Part shown: in pieces, positions 35,114 to 38,739 of the stretch | How positions within the stretch are numbered: position 1 is the first letter of the stretch | Layout: the number at the start of each line of letters is the position of its first letter | Origin: Bacteroidales bacterium | GTDB lineage: Bacteria > Bacteroidota > Bacteroidia > Bacteroidales > P3 | DNA: 64,000 nucleotides | Direction of reading: 5' to 3' | Assembly (NCBI GenBank): GCA_017448905.1 | Contig: JAFSKP010000060.1 | Span: 15,867-79,866 of the forward strand | Translations under genes and position numbers: made by a program | Notes under the pieces: model-generated | What the model was told of the DNA's origin: nothing | Databases searched by the model: none | What the model saw: only the letters and a program-made list of their open reading frames with translations

Positions 35114-35681
35114 TCACAACAGAGGGACCATGTAGTAAGGAAGGTAGCATATTGGCTCTTCGATGCTCAGGTCGCCAGAGTGTATGATATATGGGGTGGA
35201 GAGGTACGGAGAGAACTTTTTTATCAGTTTATTGAGCGATGTGGTGGTGTATCGCATACCGCTCTTTACTTCGATGGGGGAGATATTGTGTCGGCTGGTT
35301 GTCTTGTTTTTACGAATTAGGAAGTCTATCTCCATACGTTCGTTGGAGTCATTAGAGGCTTTAGAATAGAAGTAAAGCTGGTGTCCTGCGGTTTGCAGCA
35401 TCTGAGCCACGATGTTTTCTACAATCATTCCCTGATTGATTTCCAATTTGTCCATCAGCAGTTTGGTATAGATGTCGTTTTGGAGTAGACCGTTCTCATC
35501 GAAAGCAAGGCTTATGGGCACTGCCAAAATCGACAATGAGTGACGTGCGGTATTCGTTTTGTGCAAATTGCTGTACGGTATAGCTCTTCCCTACGCGTCG
35601 AGCTCCGTCAATAAGTATTGCTGTACGGCCGTTTGATGTTTGTTTCCAGTCCTTTAATTTGTCGTATATTTTTCTTTTCAT
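35114..35681 (-). pseudogene. Internally deleted COG1373/DUF4143 AAA ATPase
   Basis: A 61-aa N-terminal ORF with Walker A (GARRVGKSY) and a 150-aa C-terminal DUF4143-like ORF lie in different frames. Intact paralogs at 48280 and 51547 are 400-436 aa, so roughly 200 codons are missing. Confidence 0.6.
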
Positions 35682-35687
35682 GTCTGT

Positions 35688-35853
35688 GATAACACAAAAT
35701 CAGATTATTTATTGTACAAAAATGACACAAAATTAGATTATTTACTGTACAATAATGACACAAAATTAGATTAGCCGCTTCAAAACTGCAATAACTTGAA
35801 AAAAGTGGTCAGTCGATGTGCACCTAACTTAAAAAAGTGGTCAGTCGTTGGTA
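35688..35853 (-). repeat. Five ~33-bp phased direct-repeat units (3 + 2) upstream of the ATPase pseudogene
   Basis: Units start at 35689, 35722 and 35755 (ATGACACAAAATTAGATTA...) and at 35792 and 35825 (TAACTT(G)AAAAAAGTGGTCAGTCG). The last unit overlaps the 3' end of the methyltransferase gene. Confidence 0.7.
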
Positions 35854-38739
35854 GAGTTTGAATAGTTTGGCAACGCAAATGCTCTCGGTGGTGGTCTTGA
35901 TGTCGAAGCCATAGGCCTGCATCACGGCGCGGTCGTTGTCCTGGTGGGCGCGGCGTAGTTCTACGGGCATCGTCAACTCGTCGTAGAGGTCGGCGAGGCT
36001 GCTGTCGGGATAGAGGGCACGTGCGTCAAGAATGGCTTGCGCCGTCTGCTCAATTCTGGAGCACAGGCCGCTGGCCTGTGGCACGGGCGGCTCGCCCGTG
36101 CTCCCTGGCCACGGGAAGTTGTTATATACGATGTCGTTGGAATAGCGATATCGCATTTCAAGCCTGCCACAGACAGCGCGCATCCACGCCATGTGGACAT
36201 TGCTCATCAGCACACCGAAATGATAAAGTGTAGCATTGGGGATCAATATATTTGCATCGCCGCAGATGACATCGGTCGACATGAACCCCATTGGGATGTA
36301 GCGTCGGTTCTCGGACGAATGGCGAGGAATGATGATATAGTTTGTCTCCGGCTGCCGTATCTCCATGAAACGTGTGGGCTGGTCAGCATATTTGCGGGTG
36401 GCGGCCTTGCTGCTGGAGAGACGGAACTCGCGTGTCATCGCTACACGTTCCCTCACCAGCGGCATCTGGTTCAGCTCCTTGGGGGAGGCTCCCACGAGCC
36501 ACAGACAGTAGCGTGGCTCGTTGTGCAGGAACTCGCGCGCCCCTACAAAACGGCGTATGTATTTCTGAGCGTCAGGCTCGCGGTTAATGAATGTTTCGTA
36601 GTCTTCGGCCTCGATAATCAGGTTGCCTCCATCCACAGGACTGCTGCCTTTCATCAGCTCTGGCACGTCGCACAGCGGTTTCTTACGGCTCTCCACAAAG
36701 ACGTTGGGTGCCGGCAGTAGGTAGGGGTTGATGTTGTCCGCAGGGATGGTCTTGTCGCCATCGTAGATGATGTGCGGCTGGCGGTCGGGAGCGTTACAGT
36801 TGCTGAAGCCGACGATGACGCAATGGACATGGGCTTTCAGCGAAGCCTCGCTGTCCCAACGGAAGGTGCGGTGGGCGAAGTCGATGCTTATGCCATACTG
36901 TTCGACGAGCTTTTTCCAGATAGCCGCCACCTGCTCGCCTTGGGTGATGCTGTTGGTAGAGACCAGGGCTGCACGTGTGCTGGTACCTTCAATCAGCTGT
37001 GCTGCCTTGTAATACCATCCTGCCACATAGTCTATGTTTTTACCGCAGTCGTGGCAGACGAGGTCGAGGTCGGATTTCTGTTGTTCGTTCTGGAGTGAGT
37101 AGCCCACAAACGGTGGGTTGCCCATGATGTAGTCGTACTGGAGCACGGGCGGCTCGCCCGTGACCGGGAGCACAGGCCGCTGGCCTGTGACTTCACGGGC
37201 GAGCCGCCCGTGCTCCCACTCCATCTTCAGCGCGTTCCCCTCGCGGATATTGCTGTAGCTTTTCAGCGGCAGGAAGTCGATATCGCGGTGGATTATCTTT
37301 TCCGTCTCGCGAAGCATCTGCGCCTCGCTTATCCACAGGGCTGTGGTGGCGACGGTGACGGCGAAGTCGTTGATTTCGATGCCGTAGAACTGGTTGATGC
37401 TGACCTTGATGGGGTTGGCCTCCTCGAAGCCGAGGAACGACTGGCCGTGGTGGCGGGCGTTGATGACCTCGTTCTCCAGGCGGCGCAGCGAGAGATAGGT
37501 CTCGGTGAGGAAGTTGCCGCTGCCGCAGGCGGGGTCGAGGAAGGTGAGCTGCGAGAGTTTGTCCTGGTAGGCGTCAAGCCGTTTGCGACGTTCTTTTTCC
37601 ACCTTCACCTCCAGTATCTCGTCCAGCTCGCGGCGAAGGTCGTTGAGGAACAGTGGGTCGATGACCTTGTGGATGTTCTCTATCGAGGTGTAGTGCATGC
37701 CGCCGCTGCGTCGCGTTTCGGGGTTGAGCGTGCTCTCGAAGACGGCACTGAAGATGGTGGGCGAAATCTCGCTCCAGTCGAAATCGAGGCTGGCATTGTC
37801 GAGCAGGGTGCGCTTCAGTTCGTCGGTGAACTGCGGTATCTCAATCTCTTCTGCAAAGAGGCCTCCGTTGGTGTAGGGAAAAGCCTTGAGGTCGTCCTTA
37901 AGATATTTGCTGCGCTTGTCTTGCGGTGTGTTGAGGGTTTCGAAGAGACGGATGAGGGCCGAACGAAGGTCTTCGGCATCGTAGCGCACAAGATAGTCGT
38001 GGAACTGGTCGTGGGCGAAGACGCCTGCGTCCTCGGCATAGAGGCAGAAGACGATGCGGACACAGAGGATGTTGAGCCAGCGGAGTATCTCGGGGTCGGA
38101 GCACAGGCCGCTGGCCTGTGACTTCACGGGCGAGCCGCCCGTGCTCCCGGTCACGGGCGAGCCGCCCGTGCTCCGGTATTGCTTAAGCAAAGCCTCGTAG
38201 ATGCGGCCCACAATCTCGCCCGCCTGCATCGACACTTGCATCTCCTTGGTGATGTGCTCGCTCTTGGTGTCGACGAGGAATTGCAGACGGTAGTATTCCT
38301 TTGCAAGATTGGCGAGCTGTACCTTTTGCGGCTCGCCATTGGGTTGCTCCATGTCGTACACCCAGAACTCGCGGAAATTGCAGGTCACCACCCAACGGGG
38401 GTGGCGGCTCAGCGGCAATCCGACGATGTACTTCTTCGCCTGCTGGAAGGGGTTGAGCATCGCGCCGTCGCTCTGATGAATTGGGGCTCCGAGGTTCTTG
38501 TCGATGCTTTTCTGCTCTATCAGCACGCGTGTGGAGGGGAGGTAGACGTCCATAAAGTTGGTGCTGTCAACCATCACCTTGTCTTCGAACTCAACGAAAC
38601 TGTATGGGTCATCCACCCCATACACTTTCTGTAGCAGTTCGAGCCAGAATTTCTGGGTGTCGCCCTTCTCATATCCTTTGCCGCTCCAACGCTGTGAGAA
38701 CTCACTTGCGGCAGCAGCCTGTTGTCTGTCGGTAGTCAT
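35824..38739 (-). CDS. MmeI-like type IIL/IIG restriction-modification enzyme (N6-adenine DNA methyltransferase fused to endonuclease and target-recognition regions)
   Basis: 971 aa. N-terminus SEFSQRWSGKGYEKGDTQKFW, FLDPACGSGNFL (SAM motif I), YIMGNPPFVG (motif IV), NNFPWP in the C-terminal region. Confidence 0.85.
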   Translation of the reverse strand: MTTDRQQAAAASEFSQRWSGKGYEKGDTQKFWLELLQKVYGVDDPYSFVEFEDKVMVDSTNFMDVYLPSTRVLIEQKSIDKNLGAPIHQSDGAMLNPFQQAKKYIVGLPLSRHPRWVVTCNFREFWVYDMEQPNGEPQKVQLANLAKEYYRLQFLVDTKSEHITKEMQVSMQAGEIVGRIYEALLKQYRSTGGSPVTGSTGGSPVKSQASGLCSDPEILRWLNILCVRIVFCLYAEDAGVFAHDQFHDYLVRYDAEDLRSALIRLFETLNTPQDKRSKYLKDDLKAFPYTNGGLFAEEIEIPQFTDELKRTLLDNASLDFDWSEISPTIFSAVFESTLNPETRRSGGMHYTSIENIHKVIDPLFLNDLRRELDEILEVKVEKERRKRLDAYQDKLSQLTFLDPACGSGNFLTETYLSLRRLENEVINARHHGQSFLGFEEANPIKVSINQFYGIEINDFAVTVATTALWISEAQMLRETEKIIHRDIDFLPLKSYSNIREGNALKMEWEHGRLAREVTGQRPVLPVTGEPPVLQYDYIMGNPPFVGYSLQNEQQKSDLDLVCHDCGKNIDYVAGWYYKAAQLIEGTSTRAALVSTNSITQGEQVAAIWKKLVEQYGISIDFAHRTFRWDSEASLKAHVHCVIVGFSNCNAPDRQPHIIYDGDKTIPADNINPYLLPAPNVFVESRKKPLCDVPELMKGSSPVDGGNLIIEAEDYETFINREPDAQKYIRRFVGAREFLHNEPRYCLWLVGASPKELNQMPLVRERVAMTREFRLSSSKAATRKYADQPTRFMEIRQPETNYIIIPRHSSENRRYIPMGFMSTDVICGDANILIPNATLYHFGVLMSNVHMAWMRAVCGRLEMRYRYSNDIVYNNFPWPGSTGEPPVPQASGLCSRIEQTAQAILDARALYPDSSLADLYDELTMPVELRRAHQDNDRAVMQAYGFDIKTTTESICVAKLFKLYQRLTTFLS
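36058..36104. repeat. Cluster of 2 GC-rich palindromic units inside the methyltransferase ORF
   Basis: GGAGCACAGGCCGCTGGCCTGTG-GCACGGGCGGCTCGCCCGTGCTCC. Confidence 0.75.
37140..37216. repeat. Cluster of 3 GC-rich palindromic units inside the methyltransferase ORF
   Basis: GGAGCACGGGCGGCTCGCCCGTGAC / GGAGCACAGGCCGCTGGCCTGTGAC / TTCACGGGCGAGCCGCCCGTGCTCC. Confidence 0.75.
38098..38174. repeat. Cluster of 3 GC-rich palindromic units inside the methyltransferase ORF
   Basis: GGAGCACAGGCCGCTGGCCTGTGAC / TTCACGGGCGAGCCGCCCGTGCTCC / GTCACGGGCGAGCCGCCCGTGCTCC. Confidence 0.75.

Follow-up and report, generated by a model that had tools for sequence, protein, structure and literature searches.

The window analysed here is a stretch of 64,000 nt from contig JAFSKP010000060.1 of a Bacteroidales bacterium (assembly GCA_017448905.1). 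On its minus strand, at 35824-38739, it contains an intact gene of 971 codons that encodes a Type IIG/IIL restriction-modification enzyme of the MmeI family, as identified by Pfam, PADLOC and PDB matches. Eight short palindromic units, grouped in three clusters, are found inside this open reading frame (ORF), and they are likely to be repetitive extragenic palindromic (REP)-type elements, located in frame in an MmeI gene of gut or rumen Bacteroidales. The 971-aa protein contains the five domains of the MmeI architecture: an N-terminal nuclease, a helical spacer, a gamma-class N6A methyltransferase, a target recognition domain (TRD) and a C-terminal domain, with the Pfam models MmeI_N, MmeI_hel, MmeI_Mtase, MmeI_TRD and MmeI_C all scoring far over their cut-offs. 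It matches the PADLOC REase_MTase_IIG model with 1127 bits and the structure of MmeI (PDB 5HR4) with an E-value of 1e-182 and 612 bits. The nuclease motif D...ExK is formed by D64, E75 and K77, and the methyltransferase motifs I (DPACGSGNFL, aa 402-411) and IV (NPPF, aa 541-544) are both present, all of them in invariant alignment columns. When the window allele is compared with that of L076, which has the same three clusters, there are 45 codons with synonymous differences and 8 with non-synonymous ones, and the ratio of non-synonymous to synonymous substitution rates (dN/dS) is ~0.05. Variants found in other sequencing runs keep the frame, one being a GCT insertion and the other a +1/-1 pair. 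Since the five domains and the catalytic motifs are intact and dN/dS is 0.05, the gene is probably functional, with an enzymatic activity that is predicted, and the substitution pattern indicates that the enzyme is under purifying selection despite the inserts. An AlphaFold2 model built with 24 close homologues was poor (mean predicted local distance difference test score, pLDDT, 57.8), with the unit segments and much of the remaining protein in low-confidence coil, and it was not used as evidence.

Each unit is a perfect hairpin with an 8-bp stem and a 3-nt loop. A scan for CAC-N5-N3-N5'-GTG with perfectly complementary N5 arms found exactly eight such hairpins in the 64-kb window, and every one of them lies in the MmeI gene. 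The pattern GGAGCAC-N5-GCT-N5-GTGAC, with up to two mismatches, gave seven matches, all within 36058-38174, against 0.23 expected from shuffled sequences, and a looser pattern, CACRGGCSRSYSGCCYGTG, with up to three mismatches, retrieved the same eight units (0.54 expected). These two pattern scans and the hairpin scan bear out the original prediction, made from the letters of the sequence, that eight units in three clusters are confined to one gene of the window. The 5' tag is GGAG in seven units and GTGG in the eighth (36080-36104). The stem occurs in two versions, AGGCC/GGCCT (A) and GGGCG/CGCCC (B), which differ by paired changes, and the loop may be GCT or AGC; the two compensatory versions, both loop orientations and the coordinates were all as first described. 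All six reading frames of the units are free of stop codons.

The clusters comprise two, three and three units, respectively, and both loop orientations are found within clusters. Cluster 1 (36058-36104), at protein site 3 (aa ~878-894), the junction between the TRD and the C-terminal domain, is a 47-nt two-hairpin element with the layout GGAGCAC-[AGGCC GCT GGCCT]-GTGGCAC-[GGGCG GCT CGCCC]-GTGCTCC. Cluster 2 (37140-37216), at protein site 2 (aa 508-533), the loop directly before the methyltransferase motif IV NPPF, is built of three units, B at 37140-37164, A at 37167-37191 and an inverted B at 37192-37216. Cluster 3 (38098-38174, gene nt 566-642) corresponds to protein site 1 (aa 188-214), where a linker joins the nuclease domain to the helical spacer, and also contains three units, A at 38098-38122 followed by inverted B units at 38123-38147 and 38150-38174. 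Clusters 2 and 3 are made of the same pieces in another order, and they also have one 25-nt unit in opposite orientations. A repeat search found a 51-nt direct repeat of 100% identity between them (37167-37217 and 38098-38148), the 24-nt arm at 37140-37163 is perfectly complementary to 37193-37216 and to 38124-38147, forming inverted repeats within and between clusters, and together the two clusters form 87-nt inverted repeats (85%). The 971-codon ORF stays open while the units are read in several frames, with the peptides listed in the original prediction.

Folding of the transcribed clusters 1, 2 and 3 gives very stable predicted RNA structures (-32.9, -74.4 and -60.2 kcal/mol, with z-scores of -2.6, -9.8 and -5.8, respectively), and in other bacteria REPs are known to influence the translation and the stability of mRNAs (PMC3733652, PMC6006769). 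Both points would fit hairpins that act in the mRNA, through ribosome pausing, transcript protection or attenuated expression of a potentially toxic nuclease. We regard such a role as improbable: no Rfam family scored over its threshold, the sub-threshold matches being chance ones on the palindromes only, the stability of the folds follows from REP palindromy with no need of selection at the RNA level, and, as described below, nearly all the close homologues work without these structures. The earlier suggestion that RNA structures modulate translation of the enzyme found no supporting evidence.

The units are missing from 118 of 120 close MmeI homologues (68-99% identity). Clusters are found only in P0001 (99%), which has all three, and in P0006, which has the site-1 cluster. 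Because 118 of the 120 homologues lack them, the units are, by this alignment, a derived state in the MmeI gene, and the same alignment upholds the reading of the peptide segments as insertions; equivalent peptide linkers, which would have argued otherwise, were not found in distant homologues. At the DNA level the sites were compared with L075, a unit-free homologue of 83% amino-acid identity. Site 1 has gained 78 nt and lost 9 nt, site 2 has the 77-nt cluster in place of a loop of ~174 nt, and at site 3 ~24 nt of native linker have given way to ~48 nt; at all three sites the net change in length is a multiple of three. At site 2 the loop varies in length: some homologues have ~58 aa there, whereas MmeI itself and the 918-aa forms have ~8 aa. 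The insert positions originally proposed, aa 188-214, aa 508-533 (before YDYIMGNPPF) and aa 878-894 (after NNFPWP), were thus correct, but a clean insertion was not found, as native DNA has been partly replaced. The element has inverted ends, (CT)GGGAGCAC / GTGCTCCC(AG), and no target-site duplication was detected at the three sites, where native sequence was lost with respect to L075, so that it fails as a miniature inverted-repeat transposable element. Independent assemblies that contain a given cluster agree on the number of units (the window and L076, and for site 1 also L077).

The identity of the units was approached through their peptides. When the 30-aa peptide of cluster 3 was compared by phmmer with 1.84 billion representative proteins, a single match was obtained, P0121, while a word-index search with the 44-aa concatenated unit peptide gave no match. 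P0121 is a Y1-HUH transposase: it passes the Pfam Y1_Tnp model (37.8 bits against a cut-off of 23), REP_Tyr_transpos scores best among the NCBIfam models, with 73.4 bits just below the 80-bit cut-off, and its homologues are called RayT in their source annotations. The called ORF of P0121 extends through unit arrays at both ends. It carries the motifs NHVH and YITNNP of TnpAREP subclass 2.4, which is reported from Bacteroidetes and Cyanobacteria and in which REPs reportedly insert inside tnpAREP genes without disruption of the frame (Quentin et al. 2018, PMC6006769). By its motifs, rather than by phylogeny, P0121 would be a member of this subclass.

On the gut Bacteroidales contigs L207, L208 and L209, the gene of the REP-associated tyrosine transposase (RAYT) is flanked on both sides by GGGAGCAC-GGGCGGCTCGCCC-...-AGGCCAGCGGCCT-GTGCTCCCAGG. 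This two-hairpin element aligns column by column with cluster 1 of the window and with copies in other genes. The assignment of the eight units as REP-type elements, which we consider likely, stands on these two observations: the only protein match of the unit peptide is a RAYT, and a RAYT gene is flanked by the same element. At the Verrucomicrobia loci L017, L043 and L045, too, the same hairpin is adjacent to RAYT homologues (35-38% identity), and the near-identical hairpin in different phyla would be explained by the RAYT homologues that accompany the units there. Of 129 copies of the identical B hairpin in soil and other metagenomes, 68 have GTGG in front of them, 17 have GGGG and 4 have GTAG, and an inverted copy frequently follows after 15-25 nt. 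The GTGG tag and the inverted doublets of the B hairpin are the classical signature of REPs and of REP doublets forming hairpins (REPINs). This metagenome scan was dominated by soil REPs and gave no further Bacteroidales gene contexts; in viral contigs, the B hairpin was present at 9 loci, none with GGAG immediately 5', and the A' unit at none. The window units share with REPs the short GC-rich hairpin and the clusters of alternating orientation, and the RAYT gene flanked by the same repeat is found on L207-L209 and likewise at L017, L043 and L045. The extragenic location is not shared in the window, where 8 of 8 copies lie within the ORF.

Hosts of the unit pattern are Bacteroidales, Verrucomicrobiota, Acidobacteriota and a few other metagenome-assembled genomes, with no Rickettsia among the matches. 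In Chthoniobacterales and other Verrucomicrobia, the units appear as inverted pairs ~100 nt apart, with many per genome. The Chthoniobacterales elements are REPIN-like and ~125 nt long (L071 at 1045-1168 and 2244-2365; L017, L043 and L045), each arm containing an A hairpin identical to that of the window and a B-like hairpin, and RAYT homologues adjoin some of the copies. Many RAYT homologues (P0171, P0172, P0175, P0184, P0203-P0206 and P0222) are called as fusions with NUDIX, HAD, MarR or SpoU-methylase domains; these calls likely represent read-through of the gene caller via stop-free REP arrays.

In the goat-rumen Bacteroidales genome RGIG3667, 10 strict unit matches are spread over 8 loci on 6 contigs. 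Of seven loci, five are coding, all five of restriction type, and two appear intergenic, as does the one unit locus of RGIG10142. The element is carried in frame by four restriction-type genes of RGIG3667. The coding copies lie in a ResIII helicase with a PADLOC Type III REase match (L011), in a GmrSD_N+HNH enzyme with a PADLOC REase_II match (L022), in a 934-aa protein with two insertion sites (L040), which has no PADLOC match and reaches only 17 bits with N6_Mtase, below the cut-off of 20.4, and in two MmeI paralogues, both with a cluster at site 1 (L012 and L062). Between the two REP sites of the 934-aa protein, at 4420-4470 of L040, there is also a short run of AGTCAGA/AATCAGA-type repeats that encodes SQNSQSSQKNQSNQNN. 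One further copy of the unit in the metagenomes of the window abuts a sequence encoding NHILIEGDN, which we take to be a methyltransferase-like motif, on a contig whose depth tracks that of the window genome in three runs. This sample of host genes is small, and the search was seeded from a restriction gene.

One alternative, an old local duplication of a linker or an assembly artefact with no link to mobile DNA, would agree with the construction of clusters 2 and 3 from the same pieces and with the restriction of the units, in the window, to the MmeI gene. It is scarcely credible, since the same element flanks the RAYT gene and occurs on other contigs both in unrelated genes and between genes, since the clusters recur in L076 and L077, which were assembled independently, and in Logan contigs from several runs, and since homologues lack the units.

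For the REP-type elements, the following course of events is proposed. Gut and rumen Bacteroidales would carry a REP family of 19-nt GC-rich hairpins with a 5' GGAG or GTGG tag, in mosaic clusters of two and three units bounded by GGAGCAC...GTGCTCC, together with the cognate RAYT/TnpAREP, an HUH-Y1 enzyme that acts on single-stranded DNA and by which the units may be mobilised. Copies would have landed in, or been copied between, three positions of the MmeI-family gene that encode linkers or loops. The absence of stop codons, the length changes in multiples of three and the location of the sites at domain boundaries or in a dispensable loop would together make such insertions tolerable, the units being translated as Gly/Ser/Thr/Pro-rich segments that the enzyme, still under purifying selection, may accept as flexible linkers.

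Several observations weigh against this proposal. No RAYT gene was found within the 64-kb window, the RAYT link coming from related contigs, and the 5' tag is mostly the conserved GGAG instead of the canonical GTAG/GTGG. Native sequence has been replaced at all three sites, which is not what a simple HUH "paste" predicts. The k-mer depth over the units is 5-7x, a value largely explained by the three to five copies of each unit type in the gene itself. Finally, the clusters are all in one 2.9-kb gene, with none in the other 61 kb, and the coding copies of RGIG3667 are all in restriction-type genes, a distribution for which purely random insertion followed by tolerance offers no explanation.

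Comparison of alleles reveals a second property of the clusters that simple random insertion with tolerance leaves unexplained. Between the window and L076 there are 53 differences in gene nt 24-570 (~9%) and 3 in the remaining 2346 nt (~0.1%). The opposite is observed with L077, which shows ~99% identity to the window up to gene nt 741 and ~92% thereafter. Over the 7.5 kb that run from 44740, in the upstream flank, to 37214, the identity between L077 and the window is 98.5%; homology stops there, 2 nt inside cluster 2. The left flank, with DUF6266 and its neighbours, is common to the window and L077, the downstream genes of L077 being nowhere in the window, while L076 has the downstream flank of the window (38779-34948, DUF4143) and not its upstream one. 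Because synteny and identity follow L077 on the left and L076 on the right, the window gene is, at the level of these alleles, a mosaic that resembles L077 in its left part and L076 in its right part, with the crossover interval at 37999-38169 (gene nt 571-741), which starts inside cluster 3. The 72-nt identical tract between parents that diverge by ~9% would be an obvious site for the crossover. Clusters 2 and 1 bracket exactly the variable cassette formed by the C-terminal part of the methyltransferase domain (MTase-C) and the TRD, and the site-1 junctions of the window recur identically in the RGIG3667 alleles L012 and L062. An allele with only 79% identity in its N-terminal module has the site-1 cluster with the same junctions, yet another, of 85% identity, lacks the cluster. 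A short-read assembler could mis-join contigs at such repeats; against this, the contig depths of the three modules agree within X1 and within X2, and L076 and L077 are independent assemblies.

A direct repeat of 19 nt (95%), at 35800-35818 and 35832-35850, duplicates the last MmeI codons just past the stop codon of the gene, and it may be the scar of an earlier replacement of the 3' end. The AT-rich spacer that separates the 3' end of the MmeI gene from the neighbouring gene contains a 33-nt tandem repeat (2.5 copies, 93% match, 35692-35773). The neighbouring gene, at 35114-35693 on the minus strand, encodes a degraded AAA_14/DUF4143 ATPase, of which 58 aa of the N-terminal part (35520-35693) and 150 aa of the C-terminal part (35114-35566) are left, and is probably a pseudogene. 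A DUF4143 gene lies downstream of the MmeI gene in L076 as well.

The clusters are probably crossover points. As tracts of perfect identity common to otherwise diverged alleles, they would allow recombination to resolve in or next to them, and the gene would in this way have become a mosaic whose module boundaries coincide with clusters; we infer that the clusters were the cause of the crossovers and not their consequence. The recombination hotspots named as an alternative in the original prediction thus gain support from the allele and synteny breakpoints. A stronger version holds that the clusters are maintained as portable in-frame recombination joints, through which nuclease, methylase-core, TRD and C-terminal modules would be swapped among MmeI paralogues or alleles, and perhaps also among different defence genes, and specificity would be diversified. 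In its favour are the window/L076 crossover at or inside cluster 3, the end of L077 homology 2 nt into cluster 2 with the cassette bracketed by clusters 2 and 1, the identical site-1 junctions across 79%-identical N-terminal modules and the presence of at least two RGIG3667 MmeI paralogues with a site-1 cluster. In addition, 6 of 9 coding copies are read in one frame (STGGSPV..QASGLCS), and the two-hairpin copies all have the same orientation relative to the gene. The comparison, however, comprises three haplotypes only, and breakpoints at domain boundaries are expected anyway, as only such chimeras function; a boundary between the TRD and a conserved domain would resemble a breakpoint even with no recent exchange. 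The frame bias is non-significant (~0.1 after correction, with non-independent events), the unit-free P0002 has a similar TRD without clusters, and no exchange between different gene families was seen. Maintenance of the clusters for this purpose is accordingly viewed as rather unlikely. Its extension, in which REP clusters serve as stop-free in-frame joints for module exchange across MmeI-type, Type III, GmrSD-type and other restriction genes of gut and rumen Bacteroidales, linking diverged alleles, paralogues and chromosomal contexts in a bacterial analogue of exon shuffling, is a doubtful proposition, and if true it would explain why coding copies occur only in restriction genes.

The same repeats could work as a phase-variation switch, in which inversion or deletion between clusters, or slippage of units, toggles the enzyme. 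Restriction genes are often phase-variable. The 87-nt inverted repeats and the 51-nt perfect direct repeat of clusters 2 and 3 would provide the substrate, units with periods of 20, 25 and 27 nt would, when gained or lost, either preserve the frame or shift it, and the GCT insertion, which lies after 38149 in runs X3 and X5, is a variant within cluster 3. Yet no strand-changing joint is among those listed from assembled Logan contigs, in which rare variants would be missed, independent assemblies have the same number of units per cluster, the variants keep the frame and no recombinase gene adjoins the MmeI gene. A deletion joint of 1154 nt (36059 to 37214) in X1 and X2 was considered as an excision of the TRD cassette with both clusters and was rejected, as the contig continues into L077-type sequence and represents the P0006-like allele. 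With no inversion joints and a spurious deletion joint, the toggling of enzyme activity put forward originally has no supporting evidence, and a switch is very improbable. The P0006-like allele, which has another TRD and no site-2 cluster (37214-37340), co-occurs with the window-type allele in the gut metagenomes X1-X3, and it is somewhat deeper than the latter (13.2 versus ~8.9 in X1).

In-frame REPs represent a rare route by which selfish DNA adds peptide segments to proteins. Two features deserve follow-up, namely that the coding copies are confined to restriction genes and that the clusters coincide with breakpoints of recombination and synteny; if both hold genome-wide, they would help to explain the fast reshuffling of MmeI-type and other defence genes in gut communities. 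There are also practical consequences, because stop-free REP arrays make gene callers fuse neighbouring ORFs, and because the arrays break or mis-join short-read assemblies inside defence genes.

Among known systems, the shufflons and TRD exchange of Type I hsdS genes are alike in having repeats that border a specificity module and mosaic alleles with breakpoints at the repeats. They differ in that the repeats are here mobile REP units, with no nearby invertase or silent cassettes and no switching seen within a sample. The Rickettsia palindromic elements (RPEs) to which the units were originally likened are also selfish palindromes, present in frame in ORFs, absent from orthologues and located at positions that tolerate a peptide. 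That likeness holds in kind, given the RAYT link, the homologues without units and the other in-frame copies, and it probably does not extend to membership of an RPE family: RPEs are described as unrelated families, mostly of ~100-150 nt, which are Rickettsia-specific and have no known RAYT link, whereas the window contains ~25-nt units in 47- and 77-nt clusters. The resemblance is thus one of behaviour only.

The closest counterparts are the REPs, the bacterial interspersed mosaic elements (BIMEs) and the REPINs with their RAYT (TnpAREP), above all those of TnpAREP subclass 2.4, which have in common with the window units the GC-rich hairpins, a conserved 5' tetranucleotide, clusters of alternating orientation and, on related contigs, a Y1-HUH gene flanked by units. 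The window differs from them in its tag, mostly GGAG instead of GT[AG]G, and in its wholly intragenic copies. Intragenic REPs are a documented minority (PMC3733652), and the in-frame cases catalogued by Di Nocera et al. (2013, PMC3733652) are mostly dimers or groups that code for 20-30 aa, with an enrichment in genes of DNA repair. These cases, such as uvrA of Opitutus terrae (PMC3733652), resemble the present one in their in-frame groups, sometimes at two sites per gene, and in their large DNA-processing hosts. The hosts in that catalogue are repair and replication genes, and "restriction" is not mentioned there; the window has three sites in one restriction-modification gene, at module boundaries and breakpoints, and the confinement of coding copies to restriction-type genes observed in RGIG3667 is reported in neither PMC3733652 nor PMC6006769. 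In-frame REPs were therefore already known, and what is new here is the class of hosts: the case adds to them a well-defined Bacteroidales example, a tie to a specific RAYT family, and restriction and defence genes as REP hosts.

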